This document shows, piece by piece, positions 3,842-33,855 of a stretch of 64,000 nucleotides of DNA. The DNA is from Candidatus Omnitrophota bacterium. GTDB taxonomy: Bacteria > Omnitrophota > Gorgyraeia > JAFGHF01. The position numbers were made by a program, and so were the translations under genes. The stretch spans positions 1,044,575-1,108,574 of the forward strand of contig CP070837.1 in assembly GCA_020341815.1 (NCBI GenBank), written 5' to 3'. Under the pieces are notes generated by a model. The model did no database searches. It was not told the DNA's origin and was given only the letters and a program-made list of their open reading frames with translations. Each line of letters opens with the position of its first letter. The stretch's first letter is position 1.

Positions 3842-3930
3842 ATTGCCTCAAAAAACTACAGTAAATCTTTAGCCTCCTAAAACATTTGCTAAGTTGTCAA
3901 ATTTCTTTAAAGATGTTATCGCTGGTGATA

Positions 3931-5364
3931 TCATGATTTTTGTCTTTGCCTAACTTTCCATAAAAAATACAAGTCTTGGCTACGTATTGTTTCTTCTAGA
4001 TCACTTTTTGCCATTGTCCTTTTAGTGAGCTCTGCAATGATTTTGACTAGTCCAAGTGCACTGGCGGCAGCGATAAGTCCGTCCGGAAGAAGCCCAGAAT
4101 ACATGCCAAAAGATATAGCTCCGGTCCAAGCAATGATTTCTCGTCTTACGCCTTTAATCAATGAGCGTTGAGCTGATTTTATTCTAGTATCAAGTAAACT
4201 CAATTTAGGTCTGATTATATCTTGGAAAATTGCTTGAGCATCGCGTTTTGAAAAATTTTTACCACTTTTTCTGTATTCATTAATTGCCTTATTGAGAACA
4301 TTTCGAAATAAAATAAAAGATTCTTCCTCTCCAGCTCTAAGTTTAAGAATTTCTAAAGGATCAATATCCTCAATGAATGGAACTAAACAGGTCATATATT
4401 TTTGTATTATTTGATTCCGTTGTTCAATGTTTGGATCTAATGAGATTTCTCTCAAAAAATCAATATGGAGTATTCGTTCGGTAAGAAACGATGTATTAAG
4501 ACACTGTGCTGTTGCCAATTCAAAATTGATATTTTCGTAATTTTTTTTCGCTAGGTATTCTGCATATCCAATTTTTTTAAGAGCAGTTCTGGATAAATGA
4601 ATTTCTTTACCCTTTTTAATTTTGGCAATAATATGTGGTATTTTTTTTAAGGGCACTGGCATTTTTTCCGCTACATTAACTGTGGCTCCATGTTCAAGCA
4701 ATATTTCTGGTCCATGTGCATCTACAACATATAATCCTTTCTCCATTCTTACTGAAGCTTTGATTTGATTGTTGAATCGGTCGATTAGTTTTGTTAATGC
4801 TTTTTTTAATCTTCTATCATCTTTCTGTCCAAGAGAGTGTTTTGCTAAACAGTGCGTACAAAAATAGGGGGCTGTAATAGGGACAATCTTTTCTGCTTTT
4901 ATTAGAGGGCGTAGATAATTTAAAATAAGTAGGTCTTCAGCGAAATCTTTTTGAAATTTTCTTACATCAGATAAATTTTTTTTATTAGAGTGTTCAACGT
5001 GATCAGCTAAAAAATTCCGTATATAAACTTTATCGCTATAAAAAGCTGCGAATTGTGCCAATTGTTTTACGTAAGCCATCCTACAATCAAAAACAACGCA
5101 AGGCCATCGACTACCGCCGAGCGAAAATGAAGCAGAATGAGAAAACACAGATTCTTCCCTTGGCAATTTTTTGACAGAAGTAAGTTCCAATGATTGTTTA
5201 GAAAAATCGATAATATCGATTGGTGAGGCATGTTCAATCTGAAAAAGATTCAGTTTGCCATTACGCATAAATTTTGATTTATCAATCTGTTCAAATAAAA
5301 GATTTTTCATTATTTTCCTATTTACTGATATTAAGGAAAGGGTAAATTTACTGTTTGAATCCAA
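3931..5364 (-). CDS. hypothetical protein, 477 aa, AT-rich, no domain recognisable by eye
   Basis: Long uninterrupted ORF in a markedly AT-rich segment flanked by tRNA-Leu and tRNA-Gln. No motif I can assign. Confidence 0.5.
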   Translation of the reverse strand: MDSNSKFTLSLISVNRKIMKNLLFEQIDKSKFMRNGKLNLFQIEHASPIDIIDFSKQSLELTSVKKLPREESVFSHSASFSLGGSRWPCVVFDCRMAYVKQLAQFAAFYSDKVYIRNFLADHVEHSNKKNLSDVRKFQKDFAEDLLILNYLRPLIKAEKIVPITAPYFCTHCLAKHSLGQKDDRRLKKALTKLIDRFNNQIKASVRMEKGLYVVDAHGPEILLEHGATVNVAEKMPVPLKKIPHIIAKIKKGKEIHLSRTALKKIGYAEYLAKKNYENINFELATAQCLNTSFLTERILHIDFLREISLDPNIEQRNQIIQKYMTCLVPFIEDIDPLEILKLRAGEEESFILFRNVLNKAINEYRKSGKNFSKRDAQAIFQDIIRPKLSLLDTRIKSAQRSLIKGVRREIIAWTGAISFGMYSGLLPDGLIAAASALGLVKIIAELTKRTMAKSDLEETIRSQDLYFLWKVRQRQKS

Positions 5365-19425: not shown

Positions 19426-20768
19426 TCTTTTATCTTCCTCTCATAACCGATAGGTGTAGGGATATAGTATTTCTTCTCTGCGGGTAAGTATTCCTGGGGC
19501 ACAAAATGGTTTTTGTAATCATGGGCGTATTTGTAATCCTGGCCATGCCCCAATCGCTCTGCGCCCGGGTATGTCCCTACCCTTAAATGCTTGGGCACCT
19601 CAAGCGTCTTTTTCTGCTTCACATCGCGCAAGGCCTTTTCTATTCCCAGATAGGCGGCATTGCTTTTGGGTGCGCAGGCAATATAAACTGCGGCCTGGGC
19701 CAGGGGAATTCGCGCCTCGGGCATACCGACAAATTCAGAAATTTGTAACGCCGCATTAGCCACGACTAATGCTTGAGGGTCGGCATTACCCACGTCCTCC
19801 GCCGCGCAGATACATATCCTGCGCGCAATAAAGCGGGGGTCTTCTCCGGCATAAATCATCTTTGCCAGCCAATAAAGAGCAGCATCGGGGTCGGAGCCAC
19901 GCATACTTTTAATAAAAGCGGAAATCGTATCGTAATGGGCACTGCCTGCCTTATCATAAACAACTGCCTTCTTCTGAATAGATTCCTCGGCAACCTTTAA
20001 CGTAAAGTTTATTCTGCCCTCTTTATCGGGCTTAGTGGTAAGCGCCCCCAGCTCCAGGGCATTAAGCGCCCGGCGGGCGTCACCGTCTGAGGCCCCGGCC
20101 AGATATTTCAAGGCGGCGGCTTCCATTTTGATGGGCAATTTTCCTAAGCCCCGTTCTTTATTCTTTAAAGCGGCATTTAAAATGGCAAGGACCTCTTCCT
20201 GCTTTAAGGGGTTTAAGGAAAAGACGATGGAACGCGAAAGAAGCGCCGCTACTATAGAAAAAAACGGGTTGTGCACCGTGGCTCCGATAAGCACAACATT
20301 AGCCTCTTCCACGTCCGGCAAAACAACATCCTGCTGGGCCTTGTTAAAGCGGTGGATTTCATCGATAAAAAGCGTCGTCCTTTTCCGGAGAGTATTTTTT
20401 CGCTGTCTGGCCTGTGAAATTATCCTGCGCAGCTCATCCACATTGGAGGTGGTGGCATTTATTCTTTCGAAGTGGGAGCTGGTGGCATTGCTGACGATAT
20501 GGGCAAGGCAGGTCTTTCCTGTTCCCGGCGGGCCGTAAAGAATTAAAGAGCTGATCCTGTCTGCTGTGATTGCCCGGGTAAGAAGCTTATCCGGCCCTAA
20601 GATGTGCCTCTGCCCCACAAAGTCCTTTAGATTTTGCGGACGCATACGCACAGCCAGCGGCATAAGCTTATTATTTTTTGTCTTGTTAGGTTTCTTTTCG
20701 AACAGGTCCATTGAGCTCATAAAAAAATCCCCGCGCACGCCGTGCGAGTTTGATAATTTTGAACCCAT
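19401..20768 (-). CDS. rarA: replication-associated recombination protein A (AAA+ ATPase)
   Basis: Walker A GPPGTGKT. MgsA/RarA C-terminal pattern. The true start is probably the internal Met at about 20720 (MSSMDLFEK). Confidence 0.85.
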   Translation of the reverse strand: MGSKLSNSHGVRGDFFMSSMDLFEKKPNKTKNNKLMPLAVRMRPQNLKDFVGQRHILGPDKLLTRAITADRISSLILYGPPGTGKTCLAHIVSNATSSHFERINATTSNVDELRRIISQARQRKNTLRKRTTLFIDEIHRFNKAQQDVVLPDVEEANVVLIGATVHNPFFSIVAALLSRSIVFSLNPLKQEEVLAILNAALKNKERGLGKLPIKMEAAALKYLAGASDGDARRALNALELGALTTKPDKEGRINFTLKVAEESIQKKAVVYDKAGSAHYDTISAFIKSMRGSDPDAALYWLAKMIYAGEDPRFIARRICICAAEDVGNADPQALVVANAALQISEFVGMPEARIPLAQAAVYIACAPKSNAAYLGIEKALRDVKQKKTLEVPKHLRVGTYPGAERLGHGQDYKYAHDYKNHFVPQEYLPAEKKYYIPTPIGYERKIKEWLEKLRP

Positions 20769-20938
20769 TTTTATAGGTGGGTACCCTCACAGATACGTTA
20801 AGCCGCATCTAGATTCAGGTTCCCTATAAGATGGTGTTGGCTCAAAAGTTACCAAATCAGCACGCGCATGGCAGGGAATCTATTTAAAGTATATCATACC
20901 CCGCTGGCAAATACAAGTTGTCTTTCTGAGGCTCTCAA

Positions 20939-23047
20939 TCATCGCACCTGGCTTTTGAGTTCTTTATTTAAAGCCTGGCGGACCTCCAGATGAAGCTTAT
21001 CCACTTCCTGCGCAGTCAGAGTCCGCTCCTTGCTGCAATATTTTATAGAAAAGCTCAAGCCCCGAGAGCCTGAAGGAATCTGTTCCCCGAAATACTGGTC
21101 AAAAAGCGTAACTTTCGTTACCAGTTCCCTGCCAATGTTGTTGATTATCGAAACAATCTGTTCTGCGTTAACCTCCTGCGGTACAATTAAAGAGACATCC
21201 CTTTCTATCGAAGGAAATCTCACCAACGGCACAAATCTCTTCTCCCGGCGAATACGCGAGAGAAGCTTGCTCAATTGCAGACTGCAGACATAAACCGCAG
21301 TATTTATATCAAATCTTTCCAAAACCTCTTTCTTTACTTCTCCCAAAAAGCCGAAAGCGGAGCTCTTTTCTCCAGAAAACACAAGAGCCGATGAGCGGCC
21401 TGAAACAAAAACGGGAAAGTCTTCTTCGGCAAAACGAAAATCTTCTATGCCCAGTTTCCTCAGGAGAGTCTCTACAATGCCTTTAAGGTCGAAAAAGCAA
21501 TATTCGCCCGACTTCTTCATCCAGTTATCGTCTTTTTTACCGGCAATACCGATGCAGAGCTCGGTAGATTCAGGCCTGCCGCTTTCCTTAATATAGACAC
21601 GGCTCAACTCAAAAAGCTTTAGATTCGTATTCTTGCGGTTAATGTTGGTAACTATACTGTTTAACATCCCCACAAGCAGACTGGGGCGCAAAATCTCCTG
21701 CTCATAACTCAAAGGATTTTTTATTGTCAATGTCTCATAAGGCGCACCTAATTTCCTCAAGGCCTGACGGCTGATTAAGCTGTAAGTCATAATCTCATTA
21801 AGTCCGAGAGATGCCAGAATCTCACGCACGGCATTATAGGTCGTCTCACTGGTAAGCTCAAGGCCTCCCGCGGAAGAAAGATTCGGCGCTAATCGGGCCA
21901 GGCTCAAAGGAATATTATCATAACCATACAGGCGGGTAACCTCCTCGATTAAATCTGCCTCCCGACTGATATCATTGCGAAAACTGGGAACGGCTACCGT
22001 AATAGCTTCCTTAGACCTGCGGACAATTGCAAATTGCAGTTTGCGCAAGGCCTCTTTAATATAGGCCGGGGAAATCTCCACCCCCAAGGCCTCGGCTACT
22101 TTTGCATAACGCAGGCGGACTTTATTTATTTGGCCCGGTTTTACGGCTTTAGTTTTAGCTCGCCCCCGCGCAGCAACCGGGCGCTTATCGATAAGCTTTC
22201 CGATAAGCACTTTCCGGGACCTGCCTTTACTCGGACGGGCCAATTTTTTTATTAGTTCTATGGCCCGTAAGGCGCCTTCCGAGACACCGGCCCAATCCAC
22301 GCCTCTTTCGAAACGATAGGAAGACTGCGAGGCCAGCCCTAACTTCCGTGAAGTGTTGTGGATATTTAAGGCGTCGAAAAAGGCACTTTCCAATAGAATG
22401 CTTGTGGTGGTCTCGCTAACCTCGCTATTTTTCCCTCCCATAATCCCGGCTATGGCCCGAGGGCTTGCTTTATCCGCAATCACCAAAACGCTGCGGTCCA
22501 GATTTCTTTGCAAGCCGTCGATTGTAACTATTTGCTCGCTCTCCTCAGCAGGCCTGACAATTATCCTGCGGCCTTCCAGCTTATCCAAATCAAAGGCGTG
22601 CAAGGGCTGGCCGAATTCCAAAAGACAGAAGTTGGTAATATCTACGATATTATTTACCGCGCGGATACCCATCGCCTCAAGACGCTGAATCAACCAGGCA
22701 GGAGAAGGACGGACTTCGATATTCTTGATTACGCATCCTATATATCTTCGGCAGAGGTCCTTTTCCTGAATTTGAATGGGCACGCTCAAGACGGACCTGC
22801 CGCGGGAAGAAGTGCTTTTGGGGATTTTAAGTTTTTTGTCTGTGATTGCCGCTACCTCCCTGGCAATACCTATAATGCTTAAGCAATCCGTACGGTTAGG
22901 CGTAACCTCAATTTCCATAATTGTGTCGGCCTCATGCTTTGTCATAGAGGTTACCTCCAGTCCCGCCATGGTCAGCTTATCCGCCAGAGACTGGGGTGAA
23001 ATTCTGATATCTACATAATCTTTAAGCCAATTGAATGAAACGCGCAT
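20939..23047 (-). CDS. pheT: phenylalanine--tRNA ligase beta subunit
   Basis: MRVSFNWLKDYVDI N-terminus, B3/4 and B5 domains, ~700 aa. Confidence 0.9.
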   Translation of the reverse strand: MRVSFNWLKDYVDIRISPQSLADKLTMAGLEVTSMTKHEADTIMEIEVTPNRTDCLSIIGIAREVAAITDKKLKIPKSTSSRGRSVLSVPIQIQEKDLCRRYIGCVIKNIEVRPSPAWLIQRLEAMGIRAVNNIVDITNFCLLEFGQPLHAFDLDKLEGRRIIVRPAEESEQIVTIDGLQRNLDRSVLVIADKASPRAIAGIMGGKNSEVSETTTSILLESAFFDALNIHNTSRKLGLASQSSYRFERGVDWAGVSEGALRAIELIKKLARPSKGRSRKVLIGKLIDKRPVAARGRAKTKAVKPGQINKVRLRYAKVAEALGVEISPAYIKEALRKLQFAIVRRSKEAITVAVPSFRNDISREADLIEEVTRLYGYDNIPLSLARLAPNLSSAGGLELTSETTYNAVREILASLGLNEIMTYSLISRQALRKLGAPYETLTIKNPLSYEQEILRPSLLVGMLNSIVTNINRKNTNLKLFELSRVYIKESGRPESTELCIGIAGKKDDNWMKKSGEYCFFDLKGIVETLLRKLGIEDFRFAEEDFPVFVSGRSSALVFSGEKSSAFGFLGEVKKEVLERFDINTAVYVCSLQLSKLLSRIRREKRFVPLVRFPSIERDVSLIVPQEVNAEQIVSIINNIGRELVTKVTLFDQYFGEQIPSGSRGLSFSIKYCSKERTLTAQEVDKLHLEVRQALNKELKSQVR

Positions 23048-23063
23048 AGAAGTTCCCTTTTGG

Positions 23064-24086
23064 TTAAAACTGTTTAAGAAATCTTACGTCATTTTCAAAA
23101 AATAAACGGATATCGGTAATGCCGTATTTTAACATCGCTATTCTTTCTACGCCCATGCCAAAGGCAAAACCGCGCCAGAGCTCACTATCATATTTGACCG
23201 CGCTGAATACATTCGGGTCAACCAATCCCGCACCCAGTATCTCCAGCCACCCCTTAAACGAACAGACCCGGCAGCCGCTTCCTGCGCAGATAATGCAGGA
23301 GATATCTATCTCGGCGCTGGGTTCGGTGAAAGGGAAAAAGTGGGGCCGGAAGCGCATTTGAGTTTCCTGCCCGAACATCTCGCGCACAAAAACAGAAAGC
23401 GTCCCTTTCAAATCGGCAAAGGTTATATTTTTATCCACCGCCAGGCCTTCTATCTGGTGAAACATAAAGGAATGACTGGCATCGGTAGCATCGGGACGAA
23501 ATACCTTGCCCGGGGCAACAATCTTTAAAGGGGGCTTCTCCTTCTCCATTACCCTTATCTGTACGGGCGAGGTCTGGCTGCGCAGGAGCTTGCCGTTATC
23601 CAGATAAAAAGTATGGAATGTCTCCCGAGAGGGATGGCCTTCGGGGATATTTAAAGCCGTAAAGTTATAATAGTCTGTTTCTATTTCCGGGCCATCCACT
23701 ACCTTAAAGCCTAAATTCATAAATATCTGGCTGATTTGCCGCATTGTTTGCGTAACGGGGTGAATACTGCCTAATTCCTGATGTATGCCCGGCATGGTAA
23801 TATCAATCTTTAGCCGCTCTTTCTCTTTTTTCTTGCGCAACAAATCATGCCTGCTGCGCAATTCCTGTTCCAATTTTCTCTTTAGAAGATTTGCCGACTT
23901 TCCCGCTTCCGGCCTGTATTTTAAAGGGACCTTAGGGATGCTCTTAAGCAATTGCGTAAGCAAGCCTTTTCTCCCCAGGTACTTAGCCTTCAAGTTCTGC
24001 AGCTCTTCCTCGTTCACAATCTTTTCTATCTGGATGAGAGCTTCTTTTTCTATCTTTTCTATTTTTTTGCGCATATTTTTGTACAT
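23064..24086 (-). CDS. pheS: phenylalanine--tRNA ligase alpha subunit
   Basis: Class II aaRS motifs (FRPHFFPFTEPS, GAGLV). Upstream of pheT. Confidence 0.9.
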   Translation of the reverse strand: MYKNMRKKIEKIEKEALIQIEKIVNEEELQNLKAKYLGRKGLLTQLLKSIPKVPLKYRPEAGKSANLLKRKLEQELRSRHDLLRKKKEKERLKIDITMPGIHQELGSIHPVTQTMRQISQIFMNLGFKVVDGPEIETDYYNFTALNIPEGHPSRETFHTFYLDNGKLLRSQTSPVQIRVMEKEKPPLKIVAPGKVFRPDATDASHSFMFHQIEGLAVDKNITFADLKGTLSVFVREMFGQETQMRFRPHFFPFTEPSAEIDISCIICAGSGCRVCSFKGWLEILGAGLVDPNVFSAVKYDSELWRGFAFGMGVERIAMLKYGITDIRLFFENDVRFLKQF

Positions 24087-24088
24087 TT

Positions 24089-24580
24089 TTATCTAAACCT
24101 TCCCGTAATCAAGTGAATAATGGCCAAAGCAAAAGCTATAGCCGACAAAATTATGCTCATTTTAATCTTTTCGGCGTCCAGGGGATGCTCAACAGCTTCT
24201 CCTTCCTGAACTATGCTAATCTTCTCGGCGTGGATATCGGTATCGCCTCCGTGCTCAGGGCACCAGCGCCGAAAGGTTCCTTTCACGGAAATTATATCTC
24301 CCTTAAAAGCGTAACTGCCCTTATATTTAATTTTTTCAACCAGCTCTTTAGGGCAGATTATTCCCATGACACCGCTTTCATCGCTTACATTTATCCAGGC
24401 AAAGTCTTTACGAACCATTACATCTCCGATTACCTCTCCTTTGTAAACTATCTCTTTTCCGTCGTATTGCTGGGGGCTTTTTACAAGCTCCTCTGCGGTA
24501 ACCGCTGCAGCCTGGACATCATAAATTGACAGCTGAAAATAAACGCTAAACAATAAAATCAAAATGATAAATATTCTCAT
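24089..24580 (-). CDS. hypothetical membrane-anchored exported protein (start at MRIFIILILLF, ATGA-coupled to trkH stop)
   Basis: N-terminal signal/TM, C-terminal TM. Central beta-rich region resembling an OB-fold periplasmic domain. Confidence 0.45.
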   Translation of the reverse strand: MRIFIILILLFSVYFQLSIYDVQAAAVTAEELVKSPQQYDGKEIVYKGEVIGDVMVRKDFAWINVSDESGVMGIICPKELVEKIKYKGSYAFKGDIISVKGTFRRWCPEHGGDTDIHAEKISIVQEGEAVEHPLDAEKIKMSIILSAIAFALAIIHLITGRFR

Positions 24581-26079
24581 TTTCCTCTTACCAGAGCAAT
24601 GATTGTGCCCAAAAGAGCAAATACCGAGACGAATTCCAGTCTCCCCGCCCACATCTGAAATATATAGGTAATCTTTAAAGCCGCCGGCATCGAAGGTCGA
24701 GTAATCCCGCAGGAAAGCCCGACATTGGCCCCGGCGGAGACCGATTCAAACAGGGCCAATTTTAATGGGTAGCCTAAAGCGATGCCCGCCAATGTCCCCA
24801 AGAGATACAAAAAGATATAGGCAAGGGTAATTAAGGCAACCTGCCTGAGGAGCTTTTCCCCTAATACTATATCCTTAATGTGGTGTATTTTATCCATTAC
24901 TACGGCGCTGCGCGGAAGCATAGTCCTTTTGATATCTTCCAGTAGCGCCCTAAAAATTACCCCTATACGCAGTATCTTAATTCCTCCGGCGGTAGAGCAG
25001 GCGCCTGCGCCCATAGCCATACACAAGATAACCCCCATTAAAGACAAAGCCCGCCACTCCCCTACAAACTGCAGGGGATGGATAGTCATGTAACCGGTGC
25101 CCGTATGGGCGGAAATTACCTGATAAAATCCTTTGCGGAACAAGCTGGATACCCCCGGATAAGACCCTGCGGAGGCAAGGCCGAATGCGGTTAATCCAAA
25201 TAATAACATTATAGAAATAAAGAAACTCACCGTCTCGATATTGCGAAAAATCTCCTTCCGCTTGCCCGCCCAAAGGGCATAATGCAGGCGAAAATTGAGG
25301 CTGCCCAGAAGCATCAGGGAAATAGTAATCAGCTCAAAAGTAAAATTATGGTAATAGAGAATATTCTGCGACTGGGGCGCAAAGCCGCCGGTATCCCATG
25401 CCGCCATAGCCACCCATAGCCCGTGAAAAAAAGATTTAACCGCGGGCACGCCGGAAGAAAATGCCGTCACAGATAAGGCCAACGTCCCCACCAAAAGATA
25501 AACCAGGCTCACCAGCCAGATAAAACGGGCGGTCTGCACCACATTAGGCAGGACCTTCTCGTCCCTGGCCTCACCCACATAAACAGGAAGGGCACTGCCT
25601 GCCCCGCGCACCAGAAAGGTAATAGCAACAATCATTATCCCCTGCCCGCCGATATACATGGTCAAATGCCGCCACATATTATGGGCAAAAGAGAGGTGAT
25701 CCAAGTCCTGTACCAGAGTCAAGCCCGTGGTGGCAAATCCGCTCATGGCATCAAAACAGGCATCTAAGTATCCTCCCCAATGTCTGCTTAAGTAAAGAGG
25801 AACTGCCCCGAAGAACATCGCCAGGAGCCACGATAAAGACACTATCACCATTCCGTGTTTCCAGGTTGGCTCTTTGTGGGTAAAACAGATGAGTATCAGG
25901 ACGTAGCCTGCACTCAGGCAAAAAGAGGCGGCAATTACAAAGTCCAAGGCGGCGGCATGTTCGCCAAGACACACAGCAACCAAAAGCGGAATTAACATTA
26001 AAAGGCCCAAGCCCAAAATTACCCTGCCGCTGTATTGCCCGATAATCTTGATATCCTGAAGCTGCGGCCGCAGAATCAT
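24577..26079 (-). CDS. trkH: Trk-type K+ transporter membrane subunit
   Basis: Multiple TM segments. GGIKILRIGVIFRAL-type selectivity-filter-like repeats. The ATG at 26079 overlaps the stop of the upstream small ORF. Confidence 0.85.
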   Translation of the reverse strand: MILRPQLQDIKIIGQYSGRVILGLGLLMLIPLLVAVCLGEHAAALDFVIAASFCLSAGYVLILICFTHKEPTWKHGMVIVSLSWLLAMFFGAVPLYLSRHWGGYLDACFDAMSGFATTGLTLVQDLDHLSFAHNMWRHLTMYIGGQGIMIVAITFLVRGAGSALPVYVGEARDEKVLPNVVQTARFIWLVSLVYLLVGTLALSVTAFSSGVPAVKSFFHGLWVAMAAWDTGGFAPQSQNILYYHNFTFELITISLMLLGSLNFRLHYALWAGKRKEIFRNIETVSFFISIMLLFGLTAFGLASAGSYPGVSSLFRKGFYQVISAHTGTGYMTIHPLQFVGEWRALSLMGVILCMAMGAGACSTAGGIKILRIGVIFRALLEDIKRTMLPRSAVVMDKIHHIKDIVLGEKLLRQVALITLAYIFLYLLGTLAGIALGYPLKLALFESVSAGANVGLSCGITRPSMPAALKITYIFQMWAGRLEFVSVFALLGTIIALVRGK

Positions 26080-26204
26080 CTCCAACCCCCGCTAATAAGC
26101 CAGGATATCCCCAGGGCACAGAGCATAATAAAAACGGTCATCATAATCTCCGTACTAATACCTAAGAAAACCAGCCATATCTTGACAAAATTTTTTCCAA
26201 TCAT
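26076..26204 (-). CDS. 42-aa hydrophobic peptide between trkA and trkH
   Basis: Manually translated as MIGKNFVKIWLVFLGISTEIMMTVFIMLCALGISWLISGGWR. Its ATG overlaps the trkA stop (ATGA) and its TGA overlaps the trkH ATG (ATGA). Confidence 0.45.
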   Translation of the reverse strand: MIGKNFVKIWLVFLGISTEIMMTVFIMLCALGISWLISGGWR

Positions 26205-26872
26205 TTAGGGACCTTGCCAATTAAGACATCTAAAAGTTCCTGTTCATTTTCAATAGCGGTTAAGGCAATAATGTCGTCGTTGGCCTGTAAGAGCGTCTCG
26301 CCGTGAGGAATAATCACATCTTCCCCCCTGATGAGGGAAACCAATACCGAGGCCCGGGGAAGCTTTATCTCTCTCACCGGTTTGTTTACGCAAGGAGAAT
26401 TACTGGTTAAATCCACCCTGACCAAAGCCAGTTTTCCCCGCTTGAAAGTCATCAGGGTAACCAGGTCTTCCAGAGAGACTTCTTCTTCGATGATTTTGGC
26501 AATGATAGAGGTGGAATCCACCGCTACATCTACGCCAATCTCATTAAAGGTGTGGGCATTTTTAGGGTCATTTACCCTGGCCACTGTGCGCTTGACCTTG
26601 GAGGACTGCTTTGCCAGCTGGCAAACCATCAAATTGGCCTCATCGCTTCCGGTTACCGCAGCTACCACATCAGCGCGATTTATGCCGGCATCTTCCAGAT
26701 AACGGGAATTACAACCATCCCCGTTAATTAAGAGGACATTGCCCAGGTCTCTGGCAATCTCATCGCAGGTTGCCGCATCCTTCTCGATTAAACTGACCGT
26801 ATGATGCGCCTCGGAAAGCTCTTTAGCCAGATAAAATCCGACTTTACCTCCGCCAACTATGACAATATACAT
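26201..26872 (-). CDS. trkA: Trk K+ uptake NAD-binding subunit (TrkA-N/TrkA-C)
   Basis: Rossmann motif IVIVGGGKVG, C-terminal TrkA-C domain. Confidence 0.85.
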   Translation of the reverse strand: MYIVIVGGGKVGFYLAKELSEAHHTVSLIEKDAATCDEIARDLGNVLLINGDGCNSRYLEDAGINRADVVAAVTGSDEANLMVCQLAKQSSKVKRTVARVNDPKNAHTFNEIGVDVAVDSTSIIAKIIEEEVSLEDLVTLMTFKRGKLALVRVDLTSNSPCVNKPVREIKLPRASVLVSLIRGEDVIIPHGETLLQANDDIIALTAIENEQELLDVLIGKVPK

Positions 26873-26887
26873 TTTATCCTTCCTATC

Positions 26888-27223
26888 TTATTCATACCGC
26901 CTCAAGGCCTTTATGCCTGTTGAGGTATTTATCCTAACAGAGGAAGCCATTGAGTCTCCTGTATCTACTAAAACTATTGCGTAAGTTGCACCCCCTTTTC
27001 TTATTCTTAAAGGAGAAACCGATGTCTCTGCCAACTCACAAGCTATCTTCACTGCCTGACCTCCATAACGCACTCTCAGGCCTATATCCATAAACTCTAC
27101 GTCGAGCTCTGCCATGGCGGAACCATCGCCAGCGCCGCCTAAATAATATAACGCAAATGCCTCTTGCGCACTTACTGCCAATAGAAAGAAAAGCAGGATT
27201 AGAGTTAATTTATAACGCTTCAT
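26888..27223 (-). CDS. small secreted hypothetical protein (signal peptide MKRYKLTLILLFFLLAVSAQEAFA)
   Basis: Signal peptide plus Gly-rich mature part. Part of a cassette between the two trkA genes. Confidence 0.4.
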   Translation of the reverse strand: MKRYKLTLILLFFLLAVSAQEAFALYYLGGAGDGSAMAELDVEFMDIGLRVRYGGQAVKIACELAETSVSPLRIRKGGATYAIVLVDTGDSMASSVRINTSTGIKALRRYE

Positions 27224-27249
27224 TTTAAACAATTCCTTAATGGTAATAC

Positions 27250-28848
27250 CTATGGAGCGGTGCTGGCGCAACGGCCGCCGACCTCAAAGTTCCGAGGCGT
27301 GAAGGCGTGGGCAGCGCTGTGGCGGGCTGAAACACGGGCATACGCCGCACTACTGAGCCAATCGCCGCCGCGGAAGCCGGCACCTTGAGCATCTGTGCCT
27401 GGCCAATCAGCGTTGGTAGCAAAGCCGGTTGAACTTAAACTTCCGTCTCCGTGCGAACCAGCAAAGTCTGATACAGTTACCCCTGTTTGTGAATCCATTA
27501 CGCACACCGGGGTTTCAAATAAGTTTCCTGAGAGCTCCATTACTCCATAATATCCTGCGCCGGCTTCCTCTCTGGTGTCATCAGAATCAGTAAGGCTTCC
27601 GCATCTTAAAGGACCTTGAACCGAACCATGGTTACCATAAACGCAATTTGCTGCATTAGAAGGCACTTCGTTTGTCTGGCCGGAATTACTTATGCCTGTT
27701 GCCTGGGTAATACTGGTTGAACCCCAAGCATATTCACGGGCTACCACGGCTTGGCCGCCTCTTGCGGCTTTCTCAAATTCCAGTTCACTAAAAGGTCTTA
27801 AAGCTGCCCAGTCAGCATAAGCCGCCGTATCCCTCCAGGATAAGTAATTTGCGGCAATCTCTTCTCCGTCTGTAGATTCGTTAAAAATTCCGTCACCGTC
27901 AAGGTCGCAGCCAAAGGTGATAGGGCCTGAAGGAATAGAGGCAGGCGCTCTTATTCCATTTCTATAATAAGGGATGCCGGTATTGGGCATTACAAAGCTA
28001 CCTGCAGCTTGTGAGGCAGTGCGGCTATTCTGCTGGGTTCTGGTCAGGGTGTTTAGGAATTCTTTGTATTGACCTTGGGAAATCTCATACTTCATAATGT
28101 AAAAGGCATTATAGCCGGTAGGATAACTTGCTCCTAACTGGGTTCGCGCAGCAGGAAGATTACCGGCATAAGCCGATTCATTCACCCAGGTAATATCACC
28201 GGCAGTGCCTGTTCCATTATTGACATTGGAAATATAAGGAGCGTTAGAGGTAATTAAAGCCGGATCCCGGGGGTTTGTTGCATCAGCTGCATCAAAAAAA
28301 TGGCTGTTTGAGCTACCGGTTCTATTGGTACCATCTCCCACATAAAAATTACAGGTGGGGATATAAACCATTTCAATAGCAAAGACTTTAATTTTAACAA
28401 TATTGCTATCGGCAACGCCATCTGTTCCATAGGCCCACCTGATTTCAGCATCATTCCAGTCCACTGAACCTGAACCCGCTGCGGAGCGATAGATAAAAAC
28501 CCCTCTATATACGCCGAAAGTTGCGGCAAAATCCATTTGCGAGCCTGCGGGAGCAACATTGCCGGTATTTAAAAGACTGCAATGTCCCCAATCCGACCAA
28601 TTGCCGTCAGAATAAGCAGAATACTTAGCAAATAACCATACTGCATCCCAGTTAGCTGTGGGGCTGGGCGATCCTGTTATGCGCCAGGAATTGTCCCATG
28701 AGACATCAAATTTCATATCATAGGTATCATTGGTCGTATCCTTATCTTCCAAAGAAATATTCTCCAGAACTACATTGCTTGCAAAAGAAACTGCGGGAAT
28801 GGCTATAATAAAAATAAAAATTATTAAAAATTGCATTTTTTGTCTCAT
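27250..28848 (-). CDS. secreted formylglycine-generating-enzyme (FGE/SUMF1) domain protein
   Basis: Signal peptide. C-terminal FGE-sulfatase motifs YIMKYEISQGQYKEF, WRDTAAYADWA, RGGDWLSSAAYARVSARHS. Confidence 0.75.
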   Translation of the reverse strand: MRQKMQFLIIFIFIIAIPAVSFASNVVLENISLEDKDTTNDTYDMKFDVSWDNSWRITGSPSPTANWDAVWLFAKYSAYSDGNWSDWGHCSLLNTGNVAPAGSQMDFAATFGVYRGVFIYRSAAGSGSVDWNDAEIRWAYGTDGVADSNIVKIKVFAIEMVYIPTCNFYVGDGTNRTGSSNSHFFDAADATNPRDPALITSNAPYISNVNNGTGTAGDITWVNESAYAGNLPAARTQLGASYPTGYNAFYIMKYEISQGQYKEFLNTLTRTQQNSRTASQAAGSFVMPNTGIPYYRNGIRAPASIPSGPITFGCDLDGDGIFNESTDGEEIAANYLSWRDTAAYADWAALRPFSELEFEKAARGGQAVVAREYAWGSTSITQATGISNSGQTNEVPSNAANCVYGNHGSVQGPLRCGSLTDSDDTREEAGAGYYGVMELSGNLFETPVCVMDSQTGVTVSDFAGSHGDGSLSSTGFATNADWPGTDAQGAGFRGGDWLSSAAYARVSARHSAAHAFTPRNFEVGGRCASTAP

Positions 28849-28860
28849 GTTCTATTTCTG

Positions 28861-29268
28861 TTAAGGTCCTACATCCGTCCTGAGCCAGATTAGCCCATCG
28901 ATATCTTCAAGGTCTGCTTCATCTTCGTCTGAACCTACCAGCTGTATAACCAGACCGCCGGTTGCCTTTATAATTCCTGCCACCTCTAAGTTCGCCGTCG
29001 GCTGCAGCGTCCCGATACCTACATTACCCTCTATTACCAAATCGGCGTCTTGAGAGATTTCGTTGGGATCAAGGCTACCGCCTGCATCCCAGGGATATGT
29101 AGCGGCGTTATAATAGCCATCTCCTATGGCCATTCTTTGGGCACGCATCTGGCGATATATCCCGTATGGTGCGGGGTAATAGGTGGTCAGGGTGATTTCC
29201 TCGGCAAAGGATGCGGTGGGAAAAATAGCAGCCAAACCAATTATAAGCATTGCACTGATTTTAGGCAT
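28861..29268 (-). CDS. small secreted hypothetical protein with NVGIGT..P.A.LEVAG motif
   Basis: Signal peptide MPKISAMLIIGLAAIFPTASFA. The start overlaps the trkA-2 stop by 1 nt (TAATG). Confidence 0.45.
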   Translation of the reverse strand: MPKISAMLIIGLAAIFPTASFAEEITLTTYYPAPYGIYRQMRAQRMAIGDGYYNAATYPWDAGGSLDPNEISQDADLVIEGNVGIGTLQPTANLEVAGIIKATGGLVIQLVGSDEDEADLEDIDGLIWLRTDVGP

Positions 29269-29993
29269 TACTTTTCTCCTCGATTATTTTTTCCATTCAA
29301 GCCTAAAACTTTCCTTATTTTATTCAGGCTTTCTGTCTTTATTATGGCAATCAAGATATCTCCCTGTTCAACCTTATCTTTTAAGCGAGGGATAAAAAGC
29401 TCTTTGCTCCGGCTCTGCTCGGCATGAGTGGGGAAATTATGCGTTGGCCCGATTGCCTTCTTTTTTATAACGGCCGTTATTATCAGTTCTCCCGGTAAAT
29501 TCAATTCTTCAATTGCTTTACCTGCAATGTTGCTGCTTACCTCAATCTCTATTGCGTCAAGGCGGCTATCTTCAAGAAGAAGACTGCTGGATCTGCCCTC
29601 AAGAAGCTTATTTCTAATTACAGAGGCTAAAAGCGTAGTGCTGTTAACTACATCAATGCCCAATTCCTGATAAATATGCGTATACTGGATGTCATTAATC
29701 CTGGTGATAACCTTGGGGATATGGAAGATCTTTTTGGCTACCTGCCCGGACATAATATTGGCATTATCATTGTCGGTAACGGTGCAAAAAGCGTTGGCCT
29801 GCTCGACACCGGCTTCCTTAAGCAAATCCACATCGAAACCGTCACCCGTCAAAGTCACACCGTTAAAATCGGCTCCCAGGCGCTGAAAGGAATTTACATC
29901 CTTGTCCACAACGACCACATTATGCCCTGCGTCTGCAAGAAGCCGGGCAAGCTCGCTGCCGACCCTACCGCATCCGATAATAATGATATACAT
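29268..29993 (-). CDS. second TrkA-family NAD-binding protein
   Basis: MYIIIIGCGRVGSELA Rossmann motif plus TrkA-C-like C-terminus. Confidence 0.8.
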   Translation of the reverse strand: MYIIIIGCGRVGSELARLLADAGHNVVVVDKDVNSFQRLGADFNGVTLTGDGFDVDLLKEAGVEQANAFCTVTDNDNANIMSGQVAKKIFHIPKVITRINDIQYTHIYQELGIDVVNSTTLLASVIRNKLLEGRSSSLLLEDSRLDAIEIEVSSNIAGKAIEELNLPGELIITAVIKKKAIGPTHNFPTHAEQSRSKELFIPRLKDKVEQGDILIAIIKTESLNKIRKVLGLNGKNNRGEK

Positions 29994-29995
29994 TT

Positions 29996-30349
29996 TTATC
30001 CCTTCATTACTGTTTCAACAACGTAATCAAAGGCCGCCTTATCGTTAACCGCCAGATCGGCCAAAACCTTCCTGTTCAGATTGACTTTTGCTTTTTTCAA
30101 TCCGGCGATAAATTTATTGTAAGAAAGGCCCTTTTCTTTCAAGCGGGCATTTATCCGGGCAATCCAGAGACTGCGCATATCTCTTTTCTTGACCTTTCTA
30201 TCCCGGTAGCTGTAAGCAAGACTGCGTCTTAACGTCTCCTTGGCTGTGCGCAAAAGCTTGCTGCGTCCGCCGCGGGCGCCCTTGACCTTTTTAAAAAGTC
30301 TTTTCTTTTTCCTTCTTCTCGCTGGTGCATATTTTACTCGAACCATCAC
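29996..30349 (-). CDS. rplT: 50S ribosomal protein L20
   Basis: MVRVKYAPARRRKKKRLFK ... characteristic L20 sequence. Confidence 0.9.
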   Translation of the reverse strand: MMVRVKYAPARRRKKKRLFKKVKGARGGRSKLLRTAKETLRRSLAYSYRDRKVKKRDMRSLWIARINARLKEKGLSYNKFIAGLKKAKVNLNRKVLADLAVNDKAAFDYVVETVMKG

Positions 30350-30355
30350 TCCTCC

Positions 30356-30550
30356 TTAATATGACAATAACGCCTTGATTGCTTTTTTATCGGTTGTGGA
30401 AACTAAGCCTGCTTTCCTCAACTGCCTTTTTCTCTTCCTTGATTTTTTGGCCAATAAATGGCCGCGGCCTGCACGCTGCCTCTTGAGCTTGCCTTTTTTG
30501 GTAAGTCTGAATCTTTTGGCTAGACCTTTTTTGGTTTTAATTTTAGGCAT
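30356..30550 (-). CDS. rpmI: 50S ribosomal protein L35 (start at internal MPKIKTKKG)
   Basis: [31 protein letters not shown] matches the L35 consensus. The track ORF is extended upstream. Confidence 0.85.
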
Positions 30551-30569
30551 TGATACTCCTCTCTGATGT

Positions 30570-31076
30570 TTATTTGGGCGCAAAGACCGTATTGATAAAC
30601 CGGCCTTCGGTAATCGGACCACGCTCAACCTGGCCTACGCCGGCTATATCTTTAATAAACTTATCCACCAGGCGCCTGCCCATCTCCTGATGGGCCATTT
30701 CCCGGCCGCGGAATCTTAAAGTAACTTTAACTTTATCTCCCCGGCTCAGGAAACGCTCGGTATGCTTAAGTTTTACCTGGTAATCATGCTCCTCAATCTT
30801 TGGCCCTAATTTTATTTCCTTCACGCGTATCTTTTTCTGATGCTTTTTGGCCAGCTTTTCTTTTTTCTCCTGTTCATATTTATATTTGCTGTAATCCATA
30901 ATGCGGCAGACCGAAGGCTTGGCCTGAGGGGCAACTTCCACCAAATCCAATCCGTCTTCTTGCGCCTGCCTTAGGCCTTCTTCAACAGAAGTAACCCCCA
31001 ATTGTTCGCCGTTTTTACCGATAAGCCTAATTTTATCGGCCCTGATTCTGTTATTTGTTCTAGCATGCTTAAAAAT
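30570..31076 (-). CDS. infC: translation initiation factor IF-3, predicted AUU start codon
   Basis: Frame is open upstream of the track ORF start to a stop at 31083-31085. The N-terminus ...[24 protein letters not shown] matches IF3. The only plausible start is an ATT at 31074-31076, 9 nt after a GAGGGGGTGAAGG SD. infC is classically AUU-initiated. Confidence 0.8.
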
Positions 31077-31139
31077 GTTCCTTCACCCCCTCATACAGTT
31101 CGTAGTTATGAGTTCGTTGTTCATTGACTCTGTTTTTGC

Positions 31140-32852
31140 TTAAATTTTTTGTTCGATTTCTTTTAAAACTCTTTTCACAAACTCATCAATATCCATTATG
31201 CCCTGTTCTCCTCCGGCACGGGTCCTTACCGCCAATTTTCTCTGGGCTGCCTCCCGCTCTCCGACAATCAACATATAAGGAATCTTCTCCATTTGGGCGG
31301 TACGGATGCGCTTCTGCATCAATTCCGAGCGACTATCTAACTGCACGCGAATCTGATGGTCTTTCAAAATCTGCTCTATTTCCCGGGCAAAGCCCTCTTG
31401 CTTATCGGTAATAGGAATAATCACAGCCTGAACAGGCGCCAGCCACAGGGGCATTGCCCCGGCGTAATTCTCAATGAGCGCGCCGATAAAGCGCTCAAGG
31501 CTGCCCAGGATTACCCGGTGCAGCATCACCGGCCGGTATTCCTTGCCGTCTTTTCCTATATAATTGAGGTCGAACCTTTCCGGAAGGGCAAAATCGCACT
31601 GAATAGTTGCGCACTGCCACAGGCGCCCCAGGGCGTCTTTCAATTTTATATCTATCTTCGGGCCGTAAAAGGCGCCCTCGCCTTCATTGATATCATATTT
31701 TATTCCCTTCGCCGATAATGCCTGTTTTAAGGCATCGGTTGCTTTCTGCCAGTCGTCTTCCGTGCCGATATATTTGTGCGGACGGGTGCTTAACTCAACG
31801 GAAAACTCAGAAAACCCAAAATCCTTTAATGCCTGCTGGACGAAATCTATTACTGCGCCTATCTCTTCATTTAATTGCTCAGGCAGGCAAAAGATATGGG
31901 CATCGTCCTGCGTAAAACCTCTGGCGCGCAAGAGCCCATGCAAGACGCCGGACTTTTCATGACGGTAAACAGTGCCCAATTCAAAATATCTTATCGGTAA
32001 ATCGCGCCAACTGCGCGTTGTCGACTTATAAATCAACATATGCCCCGGGCAATTCATCGGCTTGATGGCGTATTCCTGGCCCTCTATCTTGAAGATATAC
32101 ATACTCTTTTTATAATAGGCATAATGCCCGGAGCGAACCCAGATATCGCTCTTTAGAATATGGGGGCCGATAGCCAGCTGATAACCTCTTTTCAAATGCT
32201 CTTTTTTCTCATAATCCTCAATAATTGTGCGCAGCATTGCCCCTTTGGGATGATAAAGTATAAGCCCTGGGCCAATCCCTTCAGGAAAACTAAAGAAACC
32301 CAACCTTGGCCCTAAAATCCTGTGGTCGCGCTTTTTCCCCTCTTCTTTAAGATGTAAATAGGTATCCAGTTCCTTTTTGGTAAAGAAGCAGCTGCCATAG
32401 ATGCGTTGAAGCATGGGATTATTTTCATTGCCCCGCCAATAGGCCCCGGCCACAGAAAGCAATTTGAAAAATTTAATCTCGCCGCAGGAGGCAACGTGCG
32501 GCCCGCGGCAGAGGTCAACGAACTTTCCGCTGCGATAGACCGATACTTCTTTTTCGGTGATATCCTGAATGAGCTCTAACTTAAACGGCTCACGCAGCTT
32601 CTTAAAAAGCTTGCGTGCTTCAGCTTTAGTTAAGACCTCTTTTTTAAACTTATAATCCTTATTGATAATCTGCTGCATCTTTTTTTCGATTTTACTCAAA
32701 TCTTCCGGGGTAAAAGGTTTTTCCCGGGCAAAATCATAGTAAAAGCCGTCGGCGATTGCCGGGCCAATGCCCAATTTGGTCTGGGGATAAAGCTCCTTTA
32801 CCGCCGCCGCCAATACATGGCTACAACTATGTCTTAAGGTCTCTAAATCCAT
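31140..32852 (-). CDS. thrS: threonine--tRNA ligase (no N-terminal TGS extension)
   Basis: Class II motifs, editing-domain HxxxH pattern (SCSHVLAAAV), anticodon-binding C-terminus. Upstream of infC. Confidence 0.9.
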   Translation of the reverse strand: MDLETLRHSCSHVLAAAVKELYPQTKLGIGPAIADGFYYDFAREKPFTPEDLSKIEKKMQQIINKDYKFKKEVLTKAEARKLFKKLREPFKLELIQDITEKEVSVYRSGKFVDLCRGPHVASCGEIKFFKLLSVAGAYWRGNENNPMLQRIYGSCFFTKKELDTYLHLKEEGKKRDHRILGPRLGFFSFPEGIGPGLILYHPKGAMLRTIIEDYEKKEHLKRGYQLAIGPHILKSDIWVRSGHYAYYKKSMYIFKIEGQEYAIKPMNCPGHMLIYKSTTRSWRDLPIRYFELGTVYRHEKSGVLHGLLRARGFTQDDAHIFCLPEQLNEEIGAVIDFVQQALKDFGFSEFSVELSTRPHKYIGTEDDWQKATDALKQALSAKGIKYDINEGEGAFYGPKIDIKLKDALGRLWQCATIQCDFALPERFDLNYIGKDGKEYRPVMLHRVILGSLERFIGALIENYAGAMPLWLAPVQAVIIPITDKQEGFAREIEQILKDHQIRVQLDSRSELMQKRIRTAQMEKIPYMLIVGEREAAQRKLAVRTRAGGEQGIMDIDEFVKRVLKEIEQKI

Positions 32853-32921: not shown

Positions 32922-32998
32922 TGGTGGGCGGTACAGGATTCGAACCTGTGACCTTTTGCATGTCAAGCAAACGCGCTAACCAACTGCGCCAACCGCCC
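32922..32998 (-). tRNA. tRNA-Val (anticodon GAC)
   Basis: Reverse complement GGGCGGTTGGCGCAGTTGGTTAGCGCGTTTGCTTGACATGCAAAAGGTCACAGGTTCGAATCCTGTACCGCCCACCA folds as a cloverleaf with loop TTGACAT. Confidence 0.85.
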
Positions 32999-33006
32999 TA
33001 TTGTTC

Positions 33007-33094
33007 TGGTGCCGAGAGTGGGAGTCGAACCCACACGGAGCTAAGCTCCAATGGATTTTAAGTCCATATCGTCTACCAGTTCCGACATCTCGGC
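33007..33094 (-). tRNA. tRNA-Leu (anticodon TAA), type II
   Basis: Acceptor GCCGAGA/TCTCGGC, anticodon stem ATGGA/TCCAT with loop CTTAAAA, long variable arm, T-arm GTGGG-TTCGACT-CCCAC, CCA encoded. Confidence 0.85.
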
Positions 33095-33780: not shown

Positions 33781-33855
33781 TGGAGGCGGCTGTCGGATTC
33801 GAACCGACGAATAAGGGTTTTGCAGACCCCCGCCTTCCCACTTGGCTAAGCCGCC
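33781..33855 (-). tRNA. tRNA-Cys (anticodon GCA)
   Basis: Acceptor GGCGGCT/AGCCGCC, discriminator U, anticodon stem GGGGT/ACCCT with loop CTGCAAA, T-arm GTCGG-TTCGAAT-CCGAC. Confidence 0.8.

Follow-up and report, generated by a model that had tools for sequence, protein, structure and literature searches.

Do Trk potassium transporters contain a small membrane subunit that annotation has missed, and is such a subunit encoded between trkA and trkH in an Omnitrophota genome? Trk and Ktr are among the most widespread K+ uptake systems and are generally viewed as two-protein machines, with TrkH or KtrB on the one side and an RCK protein on the other. The question is raised by a 64,000-nucleotide (nt) stretch of DNA from Candidatus Omnitrophota bacterium (GenBank assembly GCA_020341815.1, contig CP070837.1, positions 1,044,575 to 1,108,574), referred to here as the window, in which an open reading frame (ORF) of 42 codons lies between the two genes. 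Our data indicate that the encoded peptide is conserved, under purifying selection and strictly syntenic with trkH in one TrkH clade. The ORF is almost certainly a real gene and probably encodes a genuine, translated membrane protein of approximately 40 amino acids (aa). We propose that the peptide may be a KdpF-like accessory transmembrane (TM) subunit of TrkH, a reading to which we give a probability of roughly 0.65 and in which binding is suggested by the strict synteny.

Relatives were fetched through TrkH only, which gave 52 genome loci, 48 of them evaluable in that the 5' end of trkH was present; trkA and trkH were located by tblastn and the ORFs in the gap were listed. The gap between the two genes is almost never short, typically spanning 108-145 nt, and an ORF of 28-54 codons occupies the equivalent site in 46 of the 48 loci. 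The encoded peptides start with a basic segment, which is followed by the motif G-[IVM]-x-[TV]-E-[IVL] and by approximately 20 hydrophobic residues. In peptide-bearing loci, TrkH is between 89% and 46% identical to that of the window, and the carriers include Omnitrophota, Clostridium algoriphilum DSM 16153, Ca. Oleimmundimicrobium and a Coriobacteriia metagenome-assembled genome (MAG), both within Actinomycetota, and a Caldisericota MAG. When 39 peptides picked by position rather than by motif were aligned with MAFFT, just two columns were invariant, G15 and E19, and the same two residues are invariant in 17 database members. A metagenome scan with the TrkH alignment replicated this result in 80 loci, where the ORF was present in 76/76 evaluable cases (75 distinct peptides); the scan yielded close relatives only (56-81% TrkH identity) and does not define the outer boundary of the clade. 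Genome and metagenome loci combined, ORF and motif are kept in 122/124 independent loci. The two exceptions, both among the 48 genome loci, are a Natronincolaceae MAG with a 50-nt gap (locus L040) and a Bacteroidales TrkH at 30% identity. As a specificity control, a detector for the motif followed by a hydrophobic tail fired 56 times at the expected site and five times elsewhere in 473 kb read in six frames, one of these five being a true member at a contig end.

We found that selection acts on the amino acid sequence of the peptide. The open frame in the window is by itself marginal evidence, since 5.2% of shuffles of the inner 123 nt contain no in-frame stop, and it is the comparative data that decide. 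The ratio of nonsynonymous to synonymous substitution rates (dN/dS) is 0.12-0.29 in pairs with unsaturated dS, and differences fall on codon positions 1, 2 and 3 in the proportion 50/26/84. In the more diverged group to which the window belongs, dS approaches saturation and dN/dS is 0.08-0.57. Furthermore, the peptide is retained in loci in which it stands 50-230 nt apart from trkH (L018, L025, L021, L004 and L002); its conservation is therefore not a by-product of a stop/start overlap. Clostridium-type and several other loci carry GGAGG or AGGAGG 8-11 nt upstream of the peptide ATG. The original prediction had offered conservation of the micro-ORF as a check, with its absence or frame disruption in relatives as the refutation. 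The ORF at the site in 46/48 and 76/76 loci, the invariant Gly and Glu and the purifying selection bear that prediction out. The same observations, namely retention with the transporter gene and protein-coding constraint (dN/dS 0.12-0.3), are what would be expected of a gene for an accessory subunit.

The genes concerned are arranged in the window as follows.

26201..26872, minus strand: trkA, 223 aa, RCK-domain gating subunit (Pfam TrkA_N 3.9e-31, TrkA_C 4.6e-13).
26076..26204, minus strand: peptide gene of 42 codons, basic N-terminus followed by a hydrophobic helix, new small-protein family.
26145..26162, minus strand: peptide motif codons G15-I-S-T-E19-I, family form G-[IVM]-x-[TV]-E-[IVL].
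24577..26079, minus strand: trkH, 500 aa, SKT-superfamily K+ translocating subunit (Pfam TrkH E=4e-41).
26201..26204, minus strand: ATGA overlap of trkA stop and peptide start.
26076..26079, minus strand: ATGA overlap of peptide stop and trkH start.

The system is a Trk K+ uptake system, with a TrkH-family SKT subunit and RCK (TrkA_N/TrkA_C) subunits encoded together, as recognized by Pfam and by alignment to PDB entries. The original prediction had described a small ORF whose ATG overlaps the trkA stop and whose TGA overlaps the trkH ATG, and both overlaps are exact. The trkA 3' end reads CCT AAA TGA with the TGA at 26203..26201, and the peptide ATG is at 26204..26202, so that four nucleotides (26204..26201) are shared; likewise the peptide TGA at 26078..26076 and the trkH ATG at 26079..26077 share the ATGA at 26079..26076. 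The trkH start is supported by relatives, which begin MILRPQ or MILKPR at the equivalent ATG. Residues 19-490 of the window TrkH align to residues 12-478 of Vibrio parahaemolyticus TrkH (PDB 4j9u/3pjz), N-terminal D0 helices included, and TrkH is complete without any part of the small ORF. Among relatives, the 4-nt overlap of peptide stop and trkH ATG occurs in 23/46 genome loci and approximately 58/76 metagenome loci, and a trkA/peptide overlap or a gap of at most 3 nt is frequent. In two loci the peptide ORF starts before trkA ends, in a different frame, and overlaps it by 22-46 nt (L017, 3333..3470; L030, 3848..3994). Double ATGA coupling is thus common and not universal. On the plus strand, a 57-codon ORF (26035..26208) is open antisense across the peptide gene. 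This is probably a by-product of codon composition, and the selection signal sits in the minus-strand frame.

The peptide of the window, MIGKNFVKIWLVFLGISTEIMMTVFIMLCALGISWLISGGWR, has 42 aa, a grand average of hydropathy of 1.32 and a best 19-residue Kyte-Doolittle score of 2.25. With 17 family sequences as input, AlphaFold2 places a single helix at residues 2-37, at a predicted local distance difference test (pLDDT) score of 89, in agreement with the single hydrophobic helix that had been proposed from the DNA. The peptide thus falls into the class of small proteins below approximately 50 aa with one predicted TM helix. We profiled 146 family sequences anchored on the motif, with positions numbered relative to the motif Gly as 0. 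On average, the N-terminal segment carries a net charge of +2.3 and the C-terminal tail of +1, and the span from -3 to +22, 26 residues, is uncharged apart from the invariant Glu at +4, which lies approximately 7 residues into the hydrophobic segment. From the positive-inside rule we infer that the N-terminus is cytoplasmic. Conservation peaks at positions 0, 1, 3, 4, 5, 7, 8, 11, 12, 15, 16, 18, 19 and 22, a helix periodicity of 3-4 residues, and small residues predominate at 0, 8, 15 and 19, a pattern that resembles a single packing face of a helix.

These features suggest how an accessory subunit might work. The peptide would insert as a single TM helix with its basic N-terminus in the cytoplasm and would pack on TrkH via the conserved face, formed by Gly0, Glu+4, Ala/Thr+8, Ile+11, Ala/Gly+15 and Cys/Ser+19. 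Packing of this face against TrkH would make the peptide a stoichiometric accessory subunit, which could stabilize or tune the TrkA-TrkH complex in the way that KdpF is thought to act on KdpA/KdpB. The invariant Glu is predicted to be buried some two helical turns deep, on the cytoplasmic side of the membrane, and might engage in a specific contact, polar or ionic. By way of the ATGA overlaps, ribosomes may pass from trkA to the peptide gene, on to trkH and then to a gene for a 163-aa protein, which would favour matched production and assembly at the membrane. With respect to the partner, the Coriobacteriia MAG is informative. Its high-GC peptide of 51 aa (L041, 1054..1206; motif GLGTEV, GTG start) stands upstream of trkH and the 163-aa gene, and trkA was not found anywhere in this 6.7-kb locus. 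A peptide that accompanies trkH and the 163-aa gene with no adjacent trkA suggests that the partner is TrkH and not TrkA.

Since the original prediction had likened the arrangement to KdpF-type small subunits, we compared the two. KdpF, a single TM helix, sits where KdpA and KdpB meet and is believed to stabilize the complex, and KdpA and TrkH share the SKT superfamily (PMC12648545). The analogy of arrangement holds. Like KdpF (29 aa, PF09604), the Trk peptide is a tiny single-TM product of a gene immediately upstream of the SKT subunit in the same operon, kdpA there and trkH here. The likeness does not extend to sequence: PF09604 gave 0 hits for seven diverse members at E<=10 whereas the E. 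coli KdpF control matched at 1e-06, above the cutoff, and profile comparison by hhalign returned a probability of 1.2%, so the peptide was rejected as a KdpF. Unlike KdpF, the peptide precedes trkH and not kdpA, in a window module without kdp genes; it is longer (28-54 aa) and has a basic N-terminal tail and an invariant intramembrane Glu that KdpF lacks. Its partner would be a channel-like Trk gated by RCK proteins and not a P-type ATPase. Other single-helix proteins of fewer than 50 aa modulate or stabilize a larger complex and are often missed by annotation, such as AcrZ with AcrB, MgtS and MgtR with MgtA, and CydX with cytochrome bd (PMC12648545). The Trk peptide has no sequence relation to these proteins; most of them are enterobacterial and often encoded apart from their target, whereas the Trk peptide is syntenic with its presumed partner across phyla.

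Could the peptide be real and yet not be a stable subunit of TrkH? It might be a partner of the bitopic 163-aa protein, a transient assembly or insertion factor, or a hydrophobic nascent chain that brings trkA-trkH mRNA and ribosomes to the membrane before TrkH is made. We regard this as unlikely, while giving it some weight. The 163-aa gene is linked to trkH as tightly as the peptide is, and the four genes are chained by ATGA overlaps, both of which speak for such a role; the peptide and the 163-aa protein are separable, however, since the Natronincolaceae locus retains the gene for the latter and lacks the peptide. Because the trkA product is soluble, it is plausible that the membrane is targeted just ahead of trkH, and small membrane proteins are reported to be recognized by the signal recognition particle (PMC7549839). 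For targeting, however, hydrophobicity would suffice, and an invariant Gly, an intramembrane Glu and a helix face conserved across phyla would be unneeded. It is very unlikely that the peptide acts on some other target, as a sensor-kinase regulator or a small hydrophobic toxin merely carried in the trk operon. Two-component systems adjoin the module in some loci (L055 and L059), one NCBIfam toxin model, PepG1, gave a weak match (E=0.024) whose 14 bits fall below the cutoff of 70, and mycobacterial KdpF is reported to interact with other membrane proteins (PMC3618439). Against this, trkH and the 163-aa gene are the only invariant neighbours while the flanks vary, with pheST and rplT in the window and, in other loci, kdp or histidine-kinase genes, and an operonic, overlap-coupled placement is unlike that of type I toxin loci. 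A type I toxin identity was rejected on the same grounds, PepG1 being the sole match.

The remaining alternatives deny the peptide a function, and the constraint described above bears on both. A mere translational-coupling spacer between trkA and trkH with a functionless product would account for ATGA on both sides in the window, for the frequent overlap of peptide stop and trkH ATG among relatives (58/76 and 23/46 loci) and for weak Shine-Dalgarno sites in Omnitrophota. It would not account for the amino acid constraint (invariant Gly and Glu, dN/dS of 0.12-0.3, excess of third-position differences), for a peptide kept 50-230 nt away from trkH or for the peptide's own strong Shine-Dalgarno site in Clostridium-type loci, and we consider it highly improbable. 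The probability that the ORF arose by chance, or is an artefact such as a frameshifted piece of trkA or trkH, is negligible. Although 5% of shuffles stay open and an antisense frame is open as well, TrkA and TrkH are full length without the ORF (Pfam, PDB), no fused homologue was found, and the retention of ORF and motif in 122/124 loci effectively refutes this explanation.

Several observations weigh against the peptide being an accessory subunit of TrkH. In Omnitrophota loci the Shine-Dalgarno sequence is weak for the peptide and equally weak for trkH, a pattern consistent with reliance on coupling. The Natronincolaceae locus has trkA, trkH and the 163-aa gene and no peptide (3929..3977), which shows that at least one lineage can do without the peptide. 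Among 90 cluster representatives of the family, none is naturally fused to TrkH, TrkA or the 163-aa protein. A search for the TrkH residue that might pair with the Glu picked out none, as too many polar positions are conserved and only one peptide-less TrkH is available. To our knowledge, the solved Vibrio TrkH-TrkA entries (4j9u, 6v4j-l, 7zp9) hold these two proteins only and no such helix, and the solved Vibrio TrkH aligns over only part of the identity range covered here; since the solved complexes have no such helix, any role of the peptide would be specific to this clade. Two candidates that might have altered this picture were rejected: a motif match elsewhere in the Natronincolaceae locus is an unrelated 55-aa ORF beside pyrR, and two longer TrkH homologues (P0087 and P0112), considered as peptide fusions, have additions that are internal or trivially N-terminal. 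As the sole peptide-less locus inside the TrkH clade, the Natronincolaceae locus is also a natural 'knock-out' for comparison.

We next turn to the extent of the family. Searching directly with the 42-aa peptide retrieved nothing but the peptide, and the family became visible because ORFs were extracted from the trkA-trkH gaps of loci retrieved with TrkH. A profile built from the window peptide and 16 database members was searched against 1.84 billion (1.84e9) cluster representatives at E<=1e-3 and returned 90 representatives, all of 32-79 aa. The full motif is present in 84/85 profile matches, the remaining one deviating at the last position only, and the divergent members that were looked up all sit between trkA and trkH. 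For seven diverse members no Pfam or NCBIfam family was accepted, only sub-threshold matches being found, and no PDB chain matched the family profile. One of the sub-threshold matches, to the F-type ATPase c subunit in a single member (13.7 bits against a cutoff of 85), was rejected, the peptide being a single predicted helix and not a two-helix hairpin. The exact 42-aa sequence is recorded from Logan gene calls only and not at NCBI, where the adjacent TrkH is a protein record, identical to the window TrkH, of a Candidatus Omnitrophota MAG; the description of the ORF as unannotated was thus correct. In public records the gene is a 'hypothetical protein' or uncalled in nearly all of more than 120 loci, a systematic annotation gap. 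KdpF is mentioned in a 2025 review of small membrane proteins of bacteria, in which Trk and Ktr have 0 occurrences (PMC12648545), and a full-text literature search of incomplete coverage found no report of a small, additional or accessory Trk or Ktr component. Within these bounds, and with no Pfam, NCBIfam or PDB record, we likewise found no description of such a subunit for Trk, as the original prediction had supposed. This is probably a previously undescribed small-protein family, of the type of small TM accessory subunits, on a transporter class not known to have one.

The peptide is one of two conserved membrane-protein genes in the module, whose further features in the window are as follows.

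24577..24580, minus strand: ATGA overlap of trkH stop and the ATG of the 163-aa gene.
24089..24580, minus strand: 163-aa partner gene, with an N-terminal signal/anchor, a beta-rich middle and a C-terminal TM anchor.
29268..29993, minus strand: trkA', second RCK paralogue, 241 aa, recognized by Pfam.

The canonical order in relatives is trkA'-trkA-peptide-trkH-163aa. Wherever a genome locus reaches far enough, the 163-aa gene follows trkH, the Natronincolaceae and Coriobacteriia loci included, and it does so in 71/71 metagenome loci, while distant TrkH loci in Bacteroidota (24-30% identity) have neither the peptide nor the 163-aa gene. The 163-aa protein starts MRIFII and carries a near-invariant C..HGGDxDIHA motif. 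It has no Pfam or NCBIfam family, and a profile of 22 homologues had no PDB match. OB-fold matches were weak and sub-threshold, and the middle domain is predicted to be beta-rich and is possibly OB-like. An AlphaFold2 model from the single sequence was poor (pLDDT 54), and this low-confidence model agrees with the layout of anchor, beta domain and TM segment. Its position resembles that of KdpC, the bitopic subunit with a periplasmic domain encoded in the Kdp operon, and the protein could be another Trk component not described so far; the parallel with Kdp is an analogy only. Like canonical TrkH-TrkA of Vibrio and E. coli and like KtrAB, the system combines a TrkH/KtrB SKT subunit with cytoplasmic RCK proteins. 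Unlike them, this clade has two RCK paralogues and the two extra conserved membrane-protein genes.

If these proposals are correct, the co-conserved peptide and the bitopic 163-aa protein would be undescribed components of a well-studied transporter class, and the KdpF/KdpC theme would recur in a further branch of the SKT superfamily. For mutagenesis, the invariant intramembrane Glu is a clear target, and the cultured carrier Clostridium algoriphilum DSM 16153 makes the idea testable. A bolder version, which we hold to be quite unlikely, is that Trk in this clade comprises four to five components, namely TrkA', TrkA, the peptide, TrkH and a 163-aa protein that faces the periplasm and may have an OB-like fold, in parallel to KdpF/KdpA/KdpC. 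In this version the invariant intramembrane Thr-Glu pair of the peptide would be more than a packing contact and would serve, where the peptide meets TrkH, as a functional site that binds ions or protons or takes part in gating. Such a site would bear on the old question of whether and how K+ uptake by Trk is coupled to the proton-motive force.

The surroundings of the module differ between the window and its relatives. In relatives trkA' lies directly upstream of trkA, whereas in the window a three-gene insertion of 2.4 kb separates them (26888..29268, minus strand), with genes of 127 aa, 532 aa (FGE-sulfatase/SUMF1-like domain) and 135 aa. For the 532-aa protein, tblastn gave no match in any of the loci retrieved, and trkA' and trkA are adjacent in all relatives. 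On a Clostridium-type contig (L055, 4684..7513) the Trk module is followed by genes for a KdpD-like kinase and a response regulator and by kdpA, and this kdpA is preceded by a 34-aa hydrophobic ORF with no match to Pfam KdpF. Rfam searches found no riboswitch or other RNA element within or near the operon, and promoter and terminator scans of the operon were at chance level. The entire Trk module of the window (20939..32852, minus strand) is embedded in an otherwise classic thrS-infC-rplT ... pheS-pheT translation gene cluster. A 6S RNA (72 bits; 20724..20880, minus strand) follows closely after pheT, and three tRNA genes precede thrS (32925..33094 and 33784..33855, minus strand).

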